NCBI GenBank assembly: GCA_031288595.1
Contig: JAITRB010000003.1
Location: forward strand, 27,861 to 91,860
Reading direction: 5' to 3'
Source of the DNA: Puniceicoccales bacterium
GTDB taxonomy: Bacteria; Verrucomicrobiota; Verrucomicrobiia; Opitutales; JAIRLG01
Length of the DNA stretch: 64,000 nt
The notes under the pieces: model-generated
Told to the model about the DNA's origin: nothing
Databases searched by the model: none
The model's input: the letters and a program-made list of their open reading frames with translations, nothing else
Program-made: the position numbers and the translations under genes
Shown here: piece by piece, positions 1,314 through 61,229 of the stretch
How the letters are laid out: each line of letters starts with the position of its first letter
How positions within the stretch are numbered: the first letter of the stretch is position 1

Positions 1314-1407
1314 GTCTGGTGCAGACTTATAGCGGTCTCTGAAGGACTGGAGTTTTAGAAGATGTCGGGTAGGATCTCTTTGGGTATCCTAAGAGTGGGG
1401 AGGTGGT

Positions 1408-1502
1408 GCCGCCTTAAAGCCCTTTGGGCTTGCCCGCGAAGCGGGCATGCGACTAGGTAAACGAAGGCCTTAGGCCTTTGTTTGCCTAGTCGCTAAGGCG
1501 GC
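1408..1502 (-). repeat. Cloverleaf palindromic repeat CLR-A, copy A1 (inverted order H3-H2-H1 on + strand)
   Basis: Outer stem gccgcctta/taaggcggc. Hairpins are aagccc-ttt-gggctt, tgcccgc-gaa-gcgggca, and the long gcgactaggtaaac..gtttgcctagtcgc with inner aaggcc-tta-ggcctt. Confidence 0.8.
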
Positions 1503-1607
1503 GGAGCCTCTGAGCCTGCTTCCACTCCGGTGCTGAAAAAAGTGCCTTTTGAGTTTGAGATTGACCGTAATGGGGCAAAACCTAGTGCTGGTCCTTGTTT
1601 TTTCAGA

Positions 1608-2864: not shown

Positions 2865-5800
2865 ATGGGAAGGGGGAAACAAACATACGCGCCCAGTGGG
2901 GGATTTTCGATGCTCCTGGTGCTGAGCTCGATCACGGTTCTGCTGCTCTGGATCATTTTCATCAATTTCTGCTCGGTCTTTGTCCGTGAACGCCAGCAGA
3001 AACATCGCTCCCATGAGCGTTTGCAGCTATGCGCGGAGTATGCGCTTCAAGATGCCCTGCAGCACCTGCAGTCCGCCGCCGCAGCGGACCAAAGGGTAAG
3101 CGCCAGGGCAGAGATTTTTGATGCTACGGATGATGGGGTGCCGGAATCACAGCGCCTCTGGACGGGGGTCTGGCGTACGGAGCTGGAAGGGAGGGTGCAG
3201 GATACTCCCCAATTCTTCTCCTGGTTGGTCTCCCATCCCCATGAAGCGGGTGCTTGCCAATACATCCACAACGAGGCTTTTCCCCGCACTCAGCTGGAGG
3301 ATAAGAACAGCTATGCCTGGTCTTCCGATGAATGGAATTCTCCGCAGGTGATTCGCGCGCCCTGGGTCGACATAAGGGACAGCGAATCCCATCTCATCGG
3401 TCGCTATGCCTATTGGATCGAAGATGAGAGCCAGAAGGCGTGCTGCACGCTGCCACATCGGGAAAATTTGGAGGCCGAGGTGCTGCGTTCCTGTCCTCCG
3501 CAGAACGGCACTGACTTTCTGGATGGATTGTCGAGATTTCCCCAGAGTTCGCCGCAGTTGTCCTCCTGCGAGACATTGGAAGAGCTCGAGGCTCGGCATC
3601 CGGATTTTCAGGTGACGGGCAGTGACAATCCTTCCATCCGCAGCTTGCGTTTCTATGAACATGATTTAAGCTGCTGCTCCAAGGGGCTTTTGACGGACTC
3701 CTGCAACGGAGGATTCAGAAAAGACCTGACAGCTTTCTTTCAAGAGGCTGCGCCTGCTCCTCCCTATCCGGCGCTGACGGAGGAGATTTTTCGCGTCGAA
3801 AATGCAGATCCCGAACCGGCGCCGAGCTGGGGAATCCTGAGAAATTTTGCCCGATTGGGCGAAGGGGTTGTTTCGGGAAAACGGGAAGCTCAACTGGCGA
3901 CCAAAACCTATACCCCCATCGATTACAAGGATTACAGCTCCTGGCAGCGCAGCGATCTACCCCGAGAGGAACTGCAGATTCCCGAAGTCTCTCCGCTGGC
4001 TCCCATCATCACTCATTTTTCCCTACTCATACGCGTGAAGAAAATGGCCTTGGATACTTCCTCTGGAAATGGGAGCCTTCGCTTCGAGTTCATCCCGCAG
4101 CTGACGCTCTACAATCCGCACAACGTCACCCTGAATCCCCGCACCTATCGCTTCAGTTATAAGAGCCTGAAGGACAGGACCCCTCAGGCAGCGATAAGGG
4201 CCGTTCTTTTGAGTCCTGGCACTGCAGAGGAATCTAGGGTTACCCTGGCGCTTGGCGGTGCTTCGGGTATATTTTGGGAACTGCTCTCCTGCACCGCGAG
4301 TGTTGGGGAATTACCGGCCGGACAATCGGTGACTATGGGTTTAGGAGATTCCTGGCCATCGACGGAGATGAATGGCGGAAAAGCATTGCTGAGCGGAGGG
4401 CAGGGGGCATTTACCCATGACTGGAATTTCAGGCTGCAGGATATTTCGCCATGGTGGGCCATGTCTCTCTCCTCTTTTGCACTCGTTGTAGAACGCATCC
4501 CTGGTATTACTGCGGGGAGTGGAAGCATGAGCAATGGCTGGCAGCACTTCTACCTCTTTCTTCAGGACGAAACGTCACTGGCGCAGGAAGTGGCCAAGGT
4601 GCAGATCGAGGATGGTTCATCGAGTGCCCCCAAGAGTGTGGAACAGAAGCTGCTCTCGATGCCGCTCGATATGTCCTCTGTGCCGCTCTTCGGTCTGTCG
4701 GCCTGCCTCAAATCCGATCGAGAGGTGGATTGCAGCGGCAATAACGGCATGCGCTGGCTGGCGGAGGGCAATCCCCGCGCTTCATGGATGGGCCGTTCCC
4801 AGCTTCAGGATGGGGACTATATGGCTCCCAATCCCATGATTCCCGCAATTGGCAATGCCGGACTTTCCAACTGGCACTGGTCAGCCAAGTGGTTGCCGAC
4901 AGACAATCTTTCCAATTTGAATGTCCTGCCTCCAGGAAATAGTTTTTCTGGCATCCTCTTTGATATTCCCCGTAAGGATTTCGGTGTTTTGAATCTAGCC
5001 TTTCTGCAGCACGCCAACGTCACGCCCTTCGGCTATCATCCGGCCTATGCCATCGGCAATTCCCTACAAGCACCGCGCATCGCGAGAGAGGCTGCTTTTC
5101 GAAAAAATTCTGCCGGCCCGCTGTGGGTTTCGCACTGCAAGGTGGAAATGCTCTACGATTACTCTTACCTGCTCAATCGGGCCCTCTGGGACAGCTATTT
5201 CCTCTCGGCTGTAAGGGATGGGAAATCGCTCAACCCGCGTCTATGGCCCTGGAAGGTGAAGGAAGATTTAGGCAATATTCTCAATCCCTGGAATGATAGG
5301 GCCTCCAGGCTTTACATCCGCGGCGCGTTCAATGTTCACAGTACGTCAGTATCCGCCTGGTTTGCGGTGCTCTGCGGGCTCTACGACTCCAGGGAGGATA
5401 AGGTCTCTTTCGGAAGATTTCCAGGCAAGAGCACGGGAAGGATTCAGCTCTCCCGGGATCAGTTATGGTCGTTGGCAGAGGGAATTGTCGTGGAGGTGAA
5501 GCGGCGCGGCGTTGTTTCCGGACTCTCCGATTTCATCAACCGCAGATTGGTCGATAAAAATTCTCCCCAAGCGGCCCAGGGCCTGAAGGGGGCGTTACAG
5601 ACGGCCATCGATGCGAGTCTGCACGGCGCTGAAGTGCAGGTAAATTCCACTAGGGACATGGCCGGTTTTGACGACGAGGCGGCCAGCGGCGATCGGTCAT
5701 TTGGCAGAGCGGACTACCTGACGCAGGCGGATCTCCTGCAGTCGCTGGGAACTTTTCTGACGGCCAGGGGAGACAGCTTTACGATTCATGTCTGCACTGA

Positions 5801-6371: not shown

Positions 6372-6408
6372 GAAAATTTGGGGGTATTTGGGGCGTGATG
6401 GAATGTCT

Positions 6409-6504
6409 GCCGACTGGCTTTGCCATGGGCGAAGGGCAGCTGCCCTTCGCCCCTGGCGGCCCGCGCAGCGGGCCCGATTTCTCCGAAATCGAAAGCCAGT
6501 CGGC
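6409..6504 (+). repeat. Cloverleaf palindromic repeat CLR-A, copy A2
   Basis: Outer stem gccgactggcttt/aaagccagtcggc. H1 is ggcgaagggcag/ctgcccttcgcc (perfect). H2 is ggcccgc-gca-gcgggcc. H3 is cgatttc-tcc-gaaatcg. Confidence 0.85.
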
Positions 6505-6557
6505 GGGAAATAGCCATAGGCGTATTTTGCTCTTCCCAAGGACCTTGGGCTCTTTTT

Positions 6558-7418
6558 ATGCCGGCGATGACTCTATCTTCTCTGTTGGATCGGGCCGTGC
6601 GTTTTCTGCAGGGCCGAGGCGTGGCAGCGGCACGGGTCGAGGTCGAATGTCTGCTGGCCCATGTACTGGATTGCCGGCGCTGCGAACTCCATCTGCGCCT
6701 GAGGGAAAAGGTCGAACGGGCTCTGCTGGCTGAATTTCTTCCCCTATTGCGCCGCCGTGGCCGGCGCGAACCGCTGGCTTATATTCTGGAGGAATCCGAC
6801 TTCCATGAGCTCTCGCTGCGCTGTGACCGGAGGGCGCTCATCCCGCGACCCGAAACGGAAGAGCTGGTCGAATGGCTGCTGGATCGATGGGAAAAAAATC
6901 CTCCGGCCCATGTCTTGGATCTGGGGACCGGCAGCGGGGCCATTGGCCTTGCCCTAGCCAAGGCTTTCCCGAGTAGCCGCGTGACGGCCGTCGACATCGA
7001 TCCGGAAGCATTGCTGCTGGCGAAGGAGAACGCAGAGAGCAATCGAGTGAGCAACATCCACTTCGTCCGCTCGGATTGGTTCGAGAAAATCAGGGGTCGC
7101 TTCGACCTGATCGTGGCAAACCCTCCCTACCTGACGGCGGAGGAGCTGGAGAGTGCCGAGCCGGAGGTTCGGGATTATGAGCCGAGAAGAGCGCTGGGCG
7201 CAGCTGAGGAGGGACGTGCCGAGCTGCTACGCATCTTGAGGAACGCGAGAGATTTCATGACCCCCTCGGCCTGGCTGGTGATGGAAATGGGCATCGCCCA
7301 CGGGGAGCTTCTGAAGGGAGAAGCCGAAAACTTGGGCTTCTCCACCGTGCGAATTCGCCACGACCTTTCGGGTCGACCGCGCTTTTTCCTGACGAGTCAA
7401 GGGCCGCTTGCGTTCTAG
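6558..7418 (+). CDS. prmC: Peptide chain release factor N5-glutamine methyltransferase
   Basis: It has the SAM motif VLDLGTGSGAIG and the catalytic IVANPPYL (NPPY). The start is moved to ATG 6558 because the track's 6420 start reads through repeat A2. Confidence 0.85.
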   Translation: MPAMTLSSLLDRAVRFLQGRGVAAARVEVECLLAHVLDCRRCELHLRLREKVERALLAEFLPLLRRRGRREPLAYILEESDFHELSLRCDRRALIPRPETEELVEWLLDRWEKNPPAHVLDLGTGSGAIGLALAKAFPSSRVTAVDIDPEALLLAKENAESNRVSNIHFVRSDWFEKIRGRFDLIVANPPYLTAEELESAEPEVRDYEPRRALGAAEEGRAELLRILRNARDFMTPSAWLVMEMGIAHGELLKGEAENLGFSTVRIRHDLSGRPRFFLTSQGPLAF

Positions 7419-20354: not shown

Positions 20355-20453
20355 GGGCTGTCTTTGCAAGGGGCTCCGGAGGGCAGCTTATGCCCTCCGG
20401 ATCCCCTTGAGGCCCGCGCAGCGGGCGATTCCTTTGGAATCCAAAGACAGCCC
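20355..20453 (+). repeat. Cloverleaf palindromic repeat CLR-A, copy A4
   Basis: Outer stem gggctgtctttg/caaagacagccc. H1 is caagggg(c)tccggagggca-gctta-tgccctccgga(t)ccccttg. H2 is gcccgc-gca-gcgggc. H3 is gattcc-ttt-ggaatc. Confidence 0.85.
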
Positions 20454-22282: not shown

Positions 22283-22357
22283 GCTCCCGTAGTTCAATGG
22301 ATAGAACATCGGTCTCCGGAACCGACGATCCGGGTTCGAGTCCCGGCAGGAGCGCCA
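22283..22357 (+). tRNA. tRNA-Arg (anticodon CCG), CCA encoded
   Basis: GCTCCCGTAGTTCAATGGATAGAACATCGGTCTCCGGAACCGACGATCCGGGTTCGAGTCCCGGCAGGAGCGCCA. Anticodon stem TCGGT/ACCGA with loop CTCCGGA. There is one C-A mismatch in the acceptor stem. Confidence 0.85.
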
Positions 22358-22410: not shown

Positions 22411-22510
22411 GCTTAGCGCCTTTGAGCCCCCAGGGGGGCTCATGCCCGCTTCGCGGGCTGCGGATGAAAAAATGAAAATTTTCATTTTTTCATTCGCAAA
22501 GGCGCTAAGC
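22411..22510 (-). repeat. Cloverleaf palindromic repeat CLR-A, copy A5 (inverted order)
   Basis: Outer stem gcttagcgcctttg/caaaggcgctaagc is a perfect 14 bp. H3 is gagcccc-cagg-ggggctc. H2 is gcccgc-ttc-gcgggc. H1 is gcg(g)atgaaaaaatgaaaa/ttttcattttttcat(t)cgc. Confidence 0.85.
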
Positions 22511-24372: not shown

Positions 24373-24475
24373 TTCGCCGCCTTTGCGGGGAGAAACATGG
24401 AAAGAACCCTTTCCATGTTTCTCCCCGAGGCCCGCGCAGCGGGCCGGGAGCCCTTCGGGCTCCAAAGGCGGCGAA
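24373..24475 (+). repeat. Cloverleaf palindromic repeat CLR-A, copy A6
   Basis: Outer stem ttcgccgcctttg/caaaggcggcgaa is a perfect 13 bp. H1 is a 19-bp perfect stem, cggggagaaacatggaaag-aacc-ctttccatgtttctccccg. H2 is ggcccgc-gca-gcgggcc. H3 is ggagccc-ttc-gggctcc. Confidence 0.9.
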
Positions 24476-28971: not shown

Positions 28972-29062
28972 CCTCGCCAGCGATCCCAAAACTTTTAAGT
29001 TTTGCTGCTGCGCTCCGCGCAGCAGGCGCTGGGCGGGAGCCCAGCGCGGATCGCTGGCGGGG
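28972..29062 (-). repeat. Cloverleaf palindromic repeat CLR-B, copy B1
   Basis: Outer stem cctcgccagcgatc/gatcgctggcgggg. Hairpins are caaaactt-tt-aagttttg, ctgctgcgc-tcc-gcgcagcag and gcgctgggc-ggga-gcccagcgc. It matches the reverse complement of B3 at 89 of 91 positions. Confidence 0.9.
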
Positions 29063-31213: not shown

Positions 31214-31312
31214 AGGCTGCCGCCTTTGCGCGCGATGGGGATGAAATTTCATCCCCCTCGCGCGTTGTCCGCAAAGCGGACGGAGCCCGAAGGGCTCCAA
31301 AGGCGGCAGCCT
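31214..31312 (+). repeat. Cloverleaf palindromic repeat CLR-A, copy A7
   Basis: Outer stem aggctgccgcctttg/caaaggcggcagcct is a perfect 15 bp. H1 is cgcgcga(t)ggggatgaaa/tttcatcccc(c)tcgcgcg. H2 is the variant gtccgc-aaa-gcggac. H3 is ggagccc-gaa-gggctcc. Confidence 0.9.
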
Positions 31313-32273: not shown

Positions 32274-32365
32274 GGGACTGCCTTTGCGCCGAAGCCCCCT
32301 AAAAGGGGGCTTCGGCGAGGCCCGCCTTCGGCGGGCCGCTTCCTGCGGAAGCCAAAGGCAGTCCC
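32274..32365 (+). repeat. Cloverleaf palindromic repeat CLR-A, copy A8
   Basis: Outer stem gggactgcctttg/caaaggcagtccc. H1 is cgccgaagccccc-taaaa-gggggcttcggcg. H2 is ggcccgcc-ttc-ggcgggcc. H3 is gcttcc-tgc-ggaagc. Confidence 0.9.
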
Positions 32366-32472: not shown

Positions 32473-33777
32473 ATGATCTTCGTCTACCGCCTCCTGTACC
32501 CGCTGCTCTGGTGCCTGTCGATGCCGTATTTCCTCCTGAGGCGCCTGAAGCGTAGGGGCTATGGGCGCCGCTGCTGGCAACGCTGGGGATGCTACGAAAA
32601 ATCCCTATCGGAAAAATCTTCTGACAAGAGGCGCATCTGGTTCCAGGCGGTCAGCATCGGCGAGCTTAAGGCCATCGATCCTCTGCTCCGCCACTTGGCT
32701 AGAGATCCTCGATTGGAGATTTTTCTGAGCATCTCCAGCAGCAGCGCTTACCGGATGGTGGAAAGGGATTACGCTTCTCTGCTCCTGGGCTATGCCTGGT
32801 TCCCCTGGGACTTTTTCCCGGTCATGAGCGCAGCTTGGGCGTACATTCGGCCTGACCTGGCCATCCTGAGCGAGGAAGAGCTCTGGCCGGAATTTCTCAC
32901 CCAGGCCGAGCAGCATAGGGTTCCGGTTTTCCTGGTCAATGGGCGCCTGTCGGAACGCTCCTGCCGCCGCTACCGGTATTTTCCCTTTTGGAGCCGATGG
33001 CTATGGCGGCATCTTTCTTGGATAGCGCTGCCGTCACCGGCCGAAGCGAAGAAATTCAAAGATCTAGGAGCACCGGAGGGGCTCCTGACGGTCATAGGGA
33101 ATTTAAAGGGCGACCGGCTAGCTCCTTCGCTGAGCCAGGAGGGGTGCTTGCTCCTGAGAAAAGAGCTCGGGTTTGCACCGAATGACCTCGTCCTGATCGG
33201 TCTGTCGACCTGGCCCGGTGAGGAGGCCCTGCTCCTGGAATGGCTGGGGCGCCTGCGGCGTGAGGAGCCTATGCTGTCCCTGCGATTGCTCCTGGTCCCC
33301 CGCCATGCGGAGCGCGGGAGGGAAATCGCAAAACTGCTCCAGCGCAGTTCTTTTTCCTGGTATCGGCGCTCGGAAGGACCTGGCTTAGCTGGGGCCGACG
33401 TCGGGCTGGTCGACACGACGGGAGAGCTGGAACAGCTGGCCTTAGTGGGCGATCTCGCCTTTATCGGCAAGAGCTTATGTCGGCATCGCGGCGGACAGAA
33501 TCCTCTCGACGCGGCCTTTGCGGGTCTGCCTATGGTCTATGGGCCCCACATGGATAATTTCAGAACGCTGAGCGCGGCGCTGGAGAGAGAAGGGGTGGCC
33601 TGGGGAGTGCACGACCCAGAGGAAGTCTTCGAAAGGCTCAGGTGGCTTCTGAAAAATCCTGCGTTGCGGCGGGAAATATCCTCCCGTCTTCGGAGATGGA
33701 CCTCCAGACAGGCCGGAGCTACGGAGAGGGTTTTGGAGAAGATCCTCCAGCACTTTGGGCTTGAAAATGAGAGCTGA
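32473..33777 (+). CDS. waaA: 3-deoxy-D-manno-octulosonic acid (Kdo) transferase
   Basis: MIFVYRLLYPLLW..., IWFQAVSIGE, LLVPRHAERG and GGQNPLDAA are present. The start is moved to ATG 32473 because the track's 32215 start reads through repeat A8. Confidence 0.85.
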   Translation: MIFVYRLLYPLLWCLSMPYFLLRRLKRRGYGRRCWQRWGCYEKSLSEKSSDKRRIWFQAVSIGELKAIDPLLRHLARDPRLEIFLSISSSSAYRMVERDYASLLLGYAWFPWDFFPVMSAAWAYIRPDLAILSEEELWPEFLTQAEQHRVPVFLVNGRLSERSCRRYRYFPFWSRWLWRHLSWIALPSPAEAKKFKDLGAPEGLLTVIGNLKGDRLAPSLSQEGCLLLRKELGFAPNDLVLIGLSTWPGEEALLLEWLGRLRREEPMLSLRLLLVPRHAERGREIAKLLQRSSFSWYRRSEGPGLAGADVGLVDTTGELEQLALVGDLAFIGKSLCRHRGGQNPLDAAFAGLPMVYGPHMDNFRTLSAALEREGVAWGVHDPEEVFERLRWLLKNPALRREISSRLRRWTSRQAGATERVLEKILQHFGLENES

Positions 33778-33814
33778 ACCCCCTCGCTCGAAGAGCGACT
33801 TTTTTCTCGGTTCT

Positions 33815-36007: not shown

Positions 36008-36109
36008 GGAGATCGGGGCCTTGGAAGGTCTCCATGGTCGCCTCTTACTGCTGCCTCCGTAAGGATCATGGTCTGCTTAAAACTTAGGGGCATGGCTAGC
36101 GCCCTTGTT

Positions 36110-36205
36110 CTCCCCGCCAACGATCCGCGCTGGGCCAAAGGCCCAGCGCCTGCTGCGCAGAGCGCAGCAGCAAAGCTTAAAAGCTTTGGGATCGTTGGTG
36201 GGGAG
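36110..36205 (+). repeat. Cloverleaf palindromic repeat CLR-B, copy B2 (diverged, with paired substitutions)
   Basis: Outer stem ctccccgccaacgatc/gatcgttggtggggag. Hairpins are gcgctgggcc-aaa-ggcccagcgc, ctgctgcgc-aga-gcgcagcag and caaagctt-aa-aagctttg. Confidence 0.9.
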
Positions 36206-36365
36206 GACTGAGAGCATCCCCAAAGCCTTATAAGGAGAACAAGTGAAGACTTCCCTCTCCGAAGAGAATCGGGCAGAGGAGTACTTTTATTAAAATCACA
36301 CTTTTTTCCGCCACTTCACGTTTTACGAAAGTTTGCTCGTTGTTTCATTAATACTTTTCAGCCTT

Positions 36366-39061: not shown

Positions 39062-39152
39062 CTTCGCCAGCGATCCGCGCTGGGCTCCCGCCCAGCGCCT
39101 GCTGCGCGGAGCGCAGCAGCAAAACTTAAAAGTTTTGGGATCGCTGGCGAGG
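39062..39152 (+). repeat. Cloverleaf palindromic repeat CLR-B, copy B3
   Basis: Outer stem tcgccagcgatc/gatcgctggcga. Hairpins are gcgctgggc-tccc-gcccagcgc, ctgctgcgc-gga-gcgcagcag and caaaactt-aa-aagttttg. Confidence 0.9.
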
Positions 39153-42057: not shown

Positions 42058-42152
42058 GCGACGGCCCCTTGACAGAGTCAAGGGCAAGCTTCCCGCTCCG
42101 CGGGAAGCTTGCGGTCAGCGCCCGGCGAAGCCGGGCGCTGACTGGCCGTCGC
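42058..42152. repeat. Cloverleaf palindromic element CLR-C (singleton in this window)
   Basis: Outer stem gcgacggcc/ggccgtcgc. Hairpins are ccttgac-aga-gtcaagg, gcaagcttcccgc-tcc-gcgggaagcttgc and gtcagcgcccggc-gaa-gccgggcgctgac. Confidence 0.8.
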
Positions 42153-46046: not shown

Positions 46047-46150
46047 GGGTGCAGCGCCTTTAGAGGCCTTTGGGCTCTCGCCCGCTGCGCGGGCTGCGCC
46101 CAGGGAAGAAAAGAAATTTCTTTTCTTCCCTGGGCGCAAAGGCGCTGCCC
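46047..46150 (-). repeat. Cloverleaf palindromic repeat CLR-A, copy A9 (inverted order)
   Basis: Outer stem ggg(t)gcagcgccttt/aaaggcgctgccc. H3 is agag(g)cc-ttt-gg(g)ctct. H2 is gcccgc-tgc-gcgggc. H1 is a perfect 21+21 palindrome, gcgcccagggaagaaaagaaa/tttcttttcttccctgggcgc. Confidence 0.85.
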
Positions 46151-52610: not shown

Positions 52611-52718
52611 TTTTTTTCGCTGTCTTTGGAGCCCGCAGGGGCTCGCCCGCGGAGCGGGCCTCAGCGCCGGAAACAAAAGTTCCTTTTATTTCCGGCGCTG
52701 CAAAGACAGCGAAAAAAA
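52611..52718 (-). repeat. Cloverleaf palindromic repeat CLR-A, copy A10 (inverted order), flanked by T7/A7 runs
   Basis: Outer stem tttttttcgctgtctttg/caaagacagcgaaaaaaa is a perfect 18 bp. H3 is gagccc-gcag-gggctc. H2 is gcccgc-gga-gcgggc. H1 is cagcgccggaaa(c)aaaag-ttc-ctttt(a)tttccggcgctg. Confidence 0.9.
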
Positions 52719-59306: not shown

Positions 59307-59404
59307 CTTCGCTGTCTTTGGATTCCGAAGGAATCGGCCCGCTGCGCGGGCCACGAGCTTTTCCGCAAAGGCTTCTTTGCGAAAAAGCTCGAAAGACAGC
59401 GAAG
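59307..59404 (-). repeat. Cloverleaf palindromic repeat CLR-A, copy A11 (inverted order)
   Basis: Outer stem cttcgctgtcttt/aaagacagcgaag. H3 is gattcc-gaa-ggaatc. H2 is ggcccgc-tgc-gcgggcc. H1 is cgagctttt(c)cgcaaag-gctt-ctttgcg(a)aaaagctcg. Confidence 0.9.
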
Positions 59405-61125: not shown

Positions 61126-61229
61126 TTTTGTCGCCTTTGGAGCCCAAGGGGCTCTCGGCCCGCTGCGCGGGCCGTTGGGGAGAAGCAGGGAAAAGCCTTT
61201 TCCTGCTTCTCTCCACAAAGGCGACAAAA
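61126..61229 (-). repeat. Cloverleaf palindromic repeat CLR-A, copy A12 (inverted order)
   Basis: Outer stem ttttgtcgcctttg/caaaggcgacaaaa is a perfect 14 bp. H3 is gagccc-aag-gggctc. H2 is ggcccgc-tgc-gcgggcc. H1 is ggggagaagcagg(g)aaaag-cc-cttttcctgcttctctcc, with one G-T pair and one bulge. Confidence 0.9.

Follow-up and report, generated by a model that had tools for sequence, protein, structure and literature searches.

Intergenic cloverleaf repeats of Puniceicoccales bacteria carry a long palindromic arm that may turn over by template switching

[quoted passage not shown] The idea that replication errors generate hairpins has so far been backed mainly by the histories of rRNAs and microRNAs. 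Here we describe a four-armed repeat, the cloverleaf, from a stretch of 64,000 nucleotides (the window) of contig JAITRB010000003.1, which belongs to a metagenome-assembled genome (MAG) of an uncultured Puniceicoccales bacterium (Verrucomicrobiota), probably from a termite gut. The transketolase encoded in the window matches a protein of a `Puniceicoccales bacterium' MAG at full identity. An initial annotation had singled out the first arm (H1) of the copy at 24373–24475 as one of a set of long palindromes with no sequence in common. Our preferred interpretation, held with modest confidence, is that the cloverleaf is an uncatalogued REP/MITE-like DNA element in which template switching centred on the tip renews the long arm while folding stays under constraint.

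The unit of the main family (family 1) is 88–108 nt long and consists of a terminal outer stem (7–19 bp across copies) enclosing three hairpins, H1, H2 and H3, around a junction with hardly any unpaired bases; its strand is defined as the orientation that reads outer–H1–H2–H3–outer. The outer stem is conserved where it nears the junction (..GCCTTTG, ..GTCTTTG or ..GGCTTTG, opposite CAAAGGC.. or an equivalent), H2 is a conserved GC-rich hairpin (GGCCCGC-NNN-GCGGGCC), H3 is a hairpin of 6–8 bp and H1 is an arm of 13–22 bp in a slot with fixed borders. A motif search combined with a generic scan for four-way junctions gave 13 family-1 copies in the window and four copies from two other cloverleaf families. 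All are intergenic. The 13 occur in both orientations, and most follow a stop codon at a distance of 28–90 nt or neighbour a tRNA gene. The copy that drew attention is composed as follows.

24373–24475, plus strand: family-1 copy with outer stem TTCGCCGCCTTTG/CAAAGGCGGCGAA, H1, H2 (GGCCCGC-GCA-GCGGGCC) and H3 (GGAGCCC-TTC-GGGCTCC)
24386–24427, plus strand: H1 of this copy, a perfect 19 bp stem with loop AACC, the 5′ half being 84% purine

Folded as single-stranded DNA, positions 24373–24475 form the cloverleaf at −54.2 kcal/mol (z = −10.8), and none of 200 shuffled sequences was as stable. Nine perfect hairpins in the window have a stem of 12 bp or more and a loop no longer than 12 nt. All nine are inside cloverleaf elements, and no such hairpin arose in 30 composition-matched first-order Markov simulations. 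The five long hairpins quoted in the initial annotation are present on direct reading: 24386–24404 with 24409–24427 (a perfect 19 bp stem, 4 nt loop), 46096–46116 with 46117–46137 (a perfect 21+21 palindrome, or 22+22 if 46095 and 46138 are counted), 6428–6451 (12+12, extensible to 13+13), 16147–16159 with 16171–16183 (13 bp, or 14 bp with a flanking G–C pair) and 32287–32299 with 32305–32317 (13 bp). Of the H1 arms of even length, about a quarter are palindromic straight through the centre (a visual count from the gapless pairing table). The description of H1 as a near-perfect palindrome stands; strict perfection is found in only 35% of the H1 arms of `non-burst' copies, that is, those outside an amplified subfamily of the related genome Ct408_bin121. 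Variation is not confined to H1: the distal outer stem, H3 and even H2 (GTCCGC/GCGGAC in the copy at 31215, GCCCAT/ATGGGC in that at 62324) vary as well, with compensation.

The cloverleafs resemble the REP/BIME/REPIN system (RAYT, IS200/IS605-type Y1) in their high copy number (13 in 64 kb), their intergenic position, often just past gene 3′ ends, their GC-rich palindromes (H2 alone is REP-like), their occurrence in both orientations and sometimes in clusters, and their vertical inheritance with presence/absence differences. As with REPs, no target-site duplication is seen, and recognition is probably of folded single-stranded DNA. However, a REP is a hairpin or doublet of 20–40 nt, whereas the cloverleaf is a four-way junction of 88–108 nt with one hypervariable arm. 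In REPs, a conserved tetranucleotide, GTAG or CGTC, is described as abutting the palindrome on one side (PMC3733652); the cloverleaf outer stem has no such adjoining tag. The motif GGAGACG (CGTC on the other strand) is found ∼20 nt outside the H3 side in the amplified Ct408_bin121 subfamily and is absent from most window copies. REP systems have a RAYT (Y1 transposase) gene, usually with the repeats on its flanks. In the sampled DNA no RAYT homologue was found: a tblastn search with Escherichia coli RayT, which covered the window and the sampled loci of relatives (fractions of their genomes), had no match below E = 2.

The likeness to MITEs (Correia, ERIC, RPE and Nezha) lies in the length of ∼100 nt, in terminal inverted repeats, which correspond to the outer stem, in the burst of one subfamily (Ct408_bin121) and in insertion polymorphism between related genomes. 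The cloverleafs differ from them in lacking a target-site duplication (no flanking direct repeat at the family-1 copies examined) and in having an interior of three perfect hairpins with few unpaired junction bases. No related insertion sequence bearing a transposase was found in the sampled, incomplete genomes, and a search of the same Puniceicoccales DNA for multicopy open reading frames as transposase candidates gave none. In addition, the stems of orthologous cloverleafs are conserved well beyond neutral expectation, unlike those of decaying MITEs.

In integron attC sites the variable terminal structure differs between sites yet is self-complementary, and it is folding that counts rather than sequence or length. 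The cloverleaf appears to work in a similar way, with a conserved base that would be recognised as folded single-stranded DNA and a variable terminal structure. It has no R/L core sites, though (GTTRRRY; RYYYAAC…GTTRRRY), its ends reading …GCCTTTG/CAAAGGC…; there is no integrase or cassette array, the neighbours being housekeeping genes (transketolase, PGK, DNA ligase); and it is a four-way junction, whereas attC is a bulged hairpin.

The window was compared with Ct408_bin121, Pcl387_bin38 (P38), Pcl387_bin136, MAG-X (contig L117), the organism of contig L115, and L114; L-numbers denote sampled loci or contigs. The first three are, judging from their sample labels, from termite guts. Candidate loci came from scanning one genome of each species with a structural pattern, the results of which hold among the matches listed, and copies within the sampled loci were located with a fold-based cloverleaf scanner. 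Every ortholog comparison sets one MAG contig against another, and the eight orthologous element pairs (five plus three) include no true strain series and no read-level check. The arms, at ≤22 bp, are far below the read length and the assembly k-mers, so the orientation of the loops should be assembled correctly. A metagenome scan with the DNA ligase protein returned relatives at 34–41% identity only and no strain-level series. Contigs L115 and L116 are 99.98% identical and represent one species; since both of their differences fall outside elements, this pair is uninformative on element evolution.

Fourfold degenerate sites, used as the neutral yardstick, are 71% identical (29% different) between the window and P38. 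Five loci, on P38 contigs L001 and L112, hold the same subfamily in both genomes.

20355–20453, plus strand: locus 1, family-1 copy flanked by the transketolase and PGK genes, with orthologs at P38 L001 4112–4200 and MAG-X L117 ∼4542–4630
22411–22510, minus strand: locus 2, family-1 copy after tRNA-Arg with the H1 type amplified in Ct408_bin121; orthologs in P38 and MAG-X
P38 L001 8574–8674: locus 3, ortholog of the copy at 24373; outer stem, H2 and H3 the same, H1 unrelated
61127–61228, minus strand: locus 4, family-1 copy with P38 ortholog L112 1806–1912; locus-specific outer stem TTTTGTCGCCTTTG, H2 and H3 in common, H1 different
62324–62406, minus strand: locus 5, family-1 copy with H2 variant GCCCAT/ATGGGC; P38 ortholog L112 3024–3110

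H1 is kept at locus 2, with one mismatch, and at locus 5, where it shows one compensated transversion pair and changes at the tip, with one compensated pair each in H2 and the outer stem. It is wholly replaced at loci 3 and 4, and at locus 1 a 7 bp base with two compensated changes is retained while the distal part is replaced. Replacement of H1 at three of the five loci, in elements that are otherwise nearly unchanged, bears out the proposal that this arm does not evolve by ordinary single-base drift. Of the replaced H1 pairs, those at loci 1 and 3 were scored; set among random H1 pairs, they take 15th and 56th place of 67 and are no more alike than these. Transition-only hypermutation of the replaced pairs was considered and rejected, as their purine/pyrimidine patterns fail to align by eye.

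The remaining stems behave very differently from H1. Across the five loci only nine of 252 non-H1 stem bases differ (3.6%), and both halves change together, eight of the nine falling within four compensated pairs; by comparison, 12 of the 30 bases in the H2 and H3 loops differ. The rate of stem change thus lies ∼8-fold below that of neutral sites. This points to a constraint on folding, a trace of the strong structural selection that had been proposed as one of two explanations.

The sharp borders of the replacements at loci 3 and 4, with outer stem, H2 and H3 unchanged, would be accounted for if H1 were swapped between copies by gene conversion or recombination through the junction CTTTG and H2, so that old standing variation is shuffled. 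Such exchange would also account for non-H1 parts that stay near the consensus of their subfamily. At locus 4, H1 of P38 (CGCCCGAGGGAGGGAAT) is similar to that of two other GTCGCC-subfamily copies, L011 3797 and L037 5806, and the occupation of the same spacer by different families in different genomes points the same way. Nevertheless, we consider this explanation rather unlikely. No donor for any replaced H1 was found in the sampled DNA, the H1, outer-stem and H3 types are mostly linked rather than shuffled, and the flanking homologies amount to merely 5 and ∼17 nt. Exchange also leaves the loop flips, symmetric tip changes and compensated pairs, described below, unaccounted for.

A different way to obtain unrelated H1 arms at one position would be for orthologous spacers to have been colonised separately by members of the same subfamily, with no replacement in place. 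The outer-stem types are subfamily consensus types rather than locus-specific ones, and spacers are reused by different families across genomes, both of which fit this scheme. At locus 4, however, the distal outer stem TTTTGTCGCC, which is missing from other copies of the subfamily, is found in both genomes together with identical borders; this argues for one ancestral insertion with later replacement of H1. Moreover, the same subfamily is present in five of six shared spacers (the sixth holds different subfamilies in the window and P38), and the immediate flanks are conserved. Independent insertion is therefore very unlikely.

The closer pair of genomes, P38 and MAG-X (91.5% nucleotide identity; fourfold sites 87.4% identical, 12.6% different), captures earlier steps of change. 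In the transketolase–PGK copy (locus 1) none of the 80 stem and junction bases differ, whereas six of the nine loop bases do, and the H1 loop has gone from GAA to TTC, its exact reverse complement. At locus 2, AAAATTTT has given way to GGAATCCC in the 8 nt centre of H1, two pairs being compensated, and the other 30 nt are identical. In a cloverleaf of a third family, described below, the loop of a long arm shows the same GAA/TTC flip, two of the three bases of a second loop have changed and one base pair has been inserted on both halves of an arm. Loops and tips therefore outpace neutral sites several times over, and change begins symmetrically, around the tip. The two exact loop flips and the symmetric H1 tip change are traces of the kind expected from template switching, the other process to which the palindromes had been attributed.

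Template switching within quasipalindromes (the Ripley/Lovett model) is described as homogenising the arms of inverted repeats, inverting the spacer and making perfect stems in one step (PMC8794818; PMC8604942). Its footprints recur in the cloverleafs as arm homogenisation, multi-base compensation, loop inversion and perfect stems. The two cases differ in that the process is known from rRNA, microRNA and yeast genes and not from a repeat family, whereas here it would be repeated on a dispersed element, and in that cloverleaf loops change several times faster than neutral.

On this basis we propose that at amplification H1 is inherited with the remainder of the element, and that the folded arm then provokes template switching between its halves during replication or repair, starting at the tip. 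Such a switch would flip the loop, copy one half onto the other, and re-centre or extend the palindrome; because one half is copied from the other, a new H1 sequence would be self-complementary from the outset. Raw variation would be added by slippage in purine runs and probably, now and then, by conversion with another copy as donor. Copies that no longer fold would be selected against or lost, which would hold conservation of the remaining stems well above that of neutral DNA. If correct, this would provide a field example of hairpins that are both created and maintained by replication errors. The family offers an unusually clean natural readout of such a process, with four helices of unequal length per unit, dozens of copies of graded age and orthologous copies at two evolutionary distances.

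Several observations weigh against this proposal. Template switching copies and cannot invent, and the arms at loci 3 and 4 differ from the first base pairs of H1 onwards, so that another source is needed there, such as conversion between copies or deletion followed by regrowth. In 72 of 75 non-burst copies, purines predominate in the 5′ half of H1 (mean 75% in the H1–H2–H3 orientation), compared with a purine content of 38% for the 5′ half of H3 and 34% for that of the outer stem. This polarity would erode under repeated inversion and arm copying, and its persistence means that H1 must be under a constraint or a mutational bias that the proposal does not explain. If arms were copied onto each other without bias, substitution would also run at a near-neutral rate, so the eightfold slowdown of the stems requires selection or homogenisation in addition. 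The ortholog comparisons number just five plus three, all between MAGs and none between true strains; copies with flipped loops inside one genome could represent old sub-lineages and not events that recurred; and neither the RayT nor the multicopy reading-frame search identified a mobilising enzyme in the sampled DNA.

A simpler account dispenses with any special mutational mechanism and invokes pure structural selection, on RNA or on a DNA structure needed by the host, acting through classical compensatory point mutations; the element might then be a 3′-end mRNA stabiliser, a terminator-like element or a four-way junction bound by a protein. The slow and mostly compensated change of the stems relative to fourfold sites, the position of most copies directly downstream of stop codons and the recurrence of the same architecture in three unrelated sequence families all speak for it. 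Compensation in two steps should be slower than neutral change, however, and both H1 and the loops are faster; in addition, exact inversion of a loop by point mutation is expected for ∼1 in 63 changed triloops and was seen twice. The RNA version is further opposed by the lack of a G·U excess or strand bias, by the presence of both orientations relative to transcription and by the lack of an Rfam match. Structural selection by itself, including the candidate roles named above, is thus a distinctly unlikely explanation.

The pairing data bear directly on the DNA or RNA nature of the element. G·U pairs make up ∼1% of all pairs, equally on both strands, and at the gathering threshold Rfam detected only four tRNAs in the window, with a permissive scan adding matches far below threshold. 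Runs of T lie 5′ and runs of A lie 3′ of the element on both strands, where they extend the outer stem; this is the reverse of the order in a terminator, and a terminator reading was rejected for that reason. Pairing is therefore Watson–Crick on both strands, as in a DNA-level rather than an RNA element. The H2 loops are triloops in 117 of 119 copies, 82% of these being GNA or its complement TNC, and are closed by a C–G pair in 118 of 119; H3 is similar, with 71% GNA/TNC triloops. The c-GNA-g motif is an exceptionally stable DNA mini-hairpin (PMC13037366; PMC3201870). On the strand that carries the purine-rich half of H1, GNA outnumbers TNC ∼3:1 in H2 and 2.3:1 in H3, and the two biases together hint that one particular DNA strand folds.

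The sequence individuality of H1 holds only in part. None of the 13 arms in the window can be aligned with another, as first stated, yet the arms have in common the 5′ purine bias and mostly begin with GC or CA, and in the related genomes an H1 type is found repeatedly, in company with a particular type of outer stem and H3. One H1, GCGGTAAGGAAAAATG-CAAAGCGGGAGCTTT-CATTTTTCCTTACCGC, is common to 42 copies, 40 of which are in Ct408_bin121 and also share outer stem, H2 and H3. The same H1 type is found in P38, Pcl387_bin136, the L115 organism and the window copy at 22411. The Ct408_bin121 set is a recently amplified subfamily. H1 arms thus fall into sequence families once relatives are included, and the notion that each copy generates its H1 de novo is not supported. 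H1 is an ordinary inherited part of the element, since all copies of the amplified subfamily carry the same one; the window arms all look unique because the 13 copies stem from many old subfamilies and the long arm turns over much faster than the other parts. Four Ct408_bin121 copies carry the 15 nt loop of the burst H1 in inverted form, and Pcl387_bin136 and the L115 organism have it both ways round. The burst repeat unit (for example, L015 1378, L032 5742 and L046 2596) extends ∼25 nt past the cloverleaf on each side, with a conserved CGCC-GGTCGA-CGGAGACG on the H3 side (CGTC on the other strand) and a weaker ..CTCGGGAGTATTC on the H1 side.

The initial annotation had also raised the capture of H1 from elsewhere. 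In its fullest form, foreign or local DNA would be made palindromic in a fixed slot, somewhat like a CRISPR spacer or a cassette. The fixed slot borders, within which the arm varies from 13 to 22 bp, and stems of 19–22 bp, the size of guide RNAs, could be read in its favour. The long H1 half-arms, however, have no match in the rest of the window or in the sampled loci of relatives. Two arms were compared with viral contigs: one had a single 18-mer match and the other none. The 18-mer was discarded as a source of H1, as it shows no extension, hairpin or wider similarity and is at chance level; the family pattern itself is absent from the viral contigs. With H1 inherited unchanged in amplified subfamilies (∼40 copies in one genome) and purine-rich polarity throughout the arms, capture is largely refuted and must be considered extremely improbable.

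Three further analyses of H1 did not enter the argument. The base of H1 matches the inverted distal outer stem in slightly longer runs than expected (mean of 3.15 versus 2.44, significant but small); as one related group of copies drives the signal, it was not counted as a fold-back signature. Identity of H1 by position within subfamilies was too noisy (ungapped, with a crude subfamily definition), and a comparison of defects between burst and other H1 arms was confounded by the structured 15 nt loop of the former. 

At least 124 cloverleaf copies were found in the sampled loci, nearly all in Puniceicoccales MAGs. True cloverleafs were restricted, among the matches listed, to Ct408_bin121, P38 and Pcl387_bin136, and none of the listed pattern matches in other taxa folded into a cloverleaf. 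It is somewhat probable that the cloverleafs form a large, old and diversified family of noncoding, DNA-level palindromic repeats in termite-gut Puniceicoccales. P38 has copies without a window counterpart at L055 3927 (window 13922) and at L001 9731, and the unit of insertion or deletion takes in the outer stem; the element therefore appears to be mobile, or at least gained and lost. Some spacers hold a different cloverleaf family or subfamily in different genomes (window 28972 and 39062 versus L115 3698 and 13448; window 52611 versus L083 4067; window 59307 versus L112 1–25), and this reuse suggests either that certain sites are strongly preferred or that elements insert into, or replace, those already resident. 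Neighbouring pairs of copies are seen at L011 3663/3797, L020 310/472 and L008 5722/5891. The repeats probably fragment the MAG assemblies of termite-gut Puniceicoccales. The loose pattern also matched loci of Rheinheimera (L010, L038 and L079), Actinophytocola (L047, L070 and L077) and Marinobacter (L060 and L068), of which only L010 gave a three-branch fold, spurious on reading; these matches may be GC-rich palindromic repeats of those organisms' own.

Two further families in the window have the same four-armed architecture.

28972–29062, 36107–36208 and 39062–39152: family 2, without sequence similarity to family 1
42058–42152: family 3, with further copies at L001 6166–6280, L117 ∼6613–6722, L115 16740–16849 and L114 499–598

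Family 2 has the outer stem ..GCCAGCGATCC and the arms GCGCTGGGC.., CTGCTGCGC.. and CAAAACTT.., all of 7–10 bp and conserved between copies. All three arms are kept across the three window copies and an ortholog (L114 3149–3240), in which compensated pairs are seen in the outer stem and one arm, and two triloops have changed fully. The outer stem of family 3 reads GCGAYGGCC; of its arms, one is short (CYTTGNC) and two are long, at 13 bp or more. Both long arms differ between distant orthologs, being unrelated in the window and L115, and between P38 and MAG-X the family shows the loop flip and compensated indel given above. Turnover thus affects the long arms and not the short ones. A family-3 insertion in L114, not present in the window (33742–33781), is flanked by a direct duplication of the ∼43 bp target (L114 417–457 and 680–720); since the target is the overlap of two genes, the duplication leaves both reading frames intact.

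The same architecture in three unrelated families of one genome is the basis for a tentative and, in our view, improbable further idea, namely that the cloverleaf is the substrate of an undescribed enzyme acting on folded single-stranded DNA, such as a junction-binding transposase, a recombinase or a nuclease. H2, H3 and the junction might then be the recognition module and the long arm a spacer free in sequence and constrained in polarity, with tip-centred turnover a conceivable by-product of repeated processing at the hairpin. If so, the conservation of the stems would suggest a domesticated function, for example in chromosome organisation or 3′-end processing. More broadly, a four-way junction in three unrelated families points to structure-specific mobilisation or a host function in a poorly known phylum.

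The remaining family-1 copies in the window are as follows.

1407–1503, minus strand: junction variant CTTA/TAAG, upstream of tRNA-Ser
6406–6507, plus strand: H1 holds the 13+13 palindrome at 6427–6452
16139–16226, plus strand: H1 (GCCCGAAGGAAAGG...) of the type of several P38 copies, GGGGCTGGCTTT subfamily
31215–31311, plus strand: compensated H2 variant GTCCGC-AAA-GCGGAC
32276–32363, plus strand: 13 bp H1 CGCCGAAGCCCCC, common to three P38 copies (L027 ∼1477, L034 ∼4020 and L059 ∼375)
46051–46148, minus strand: H1 palindromic straight through its centre, 46095–46138
52611–52718, minus strand: between convergent genes; the base of H1 (CAGCG) and the distal outer stem (CGCTG) are reverse complements
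59307–59404, minus strand: the same spacer in P38 holds an element of another subfamily

tRNA genes lie within ∼100 nt of three of the 13 copies, those at 1407–1503 (tRNA-Ser at 1608), 16139–16226 (tRNA-Pro at 16329–16405) and 22411–22510 (tRNA-Arg at 22283–22357).

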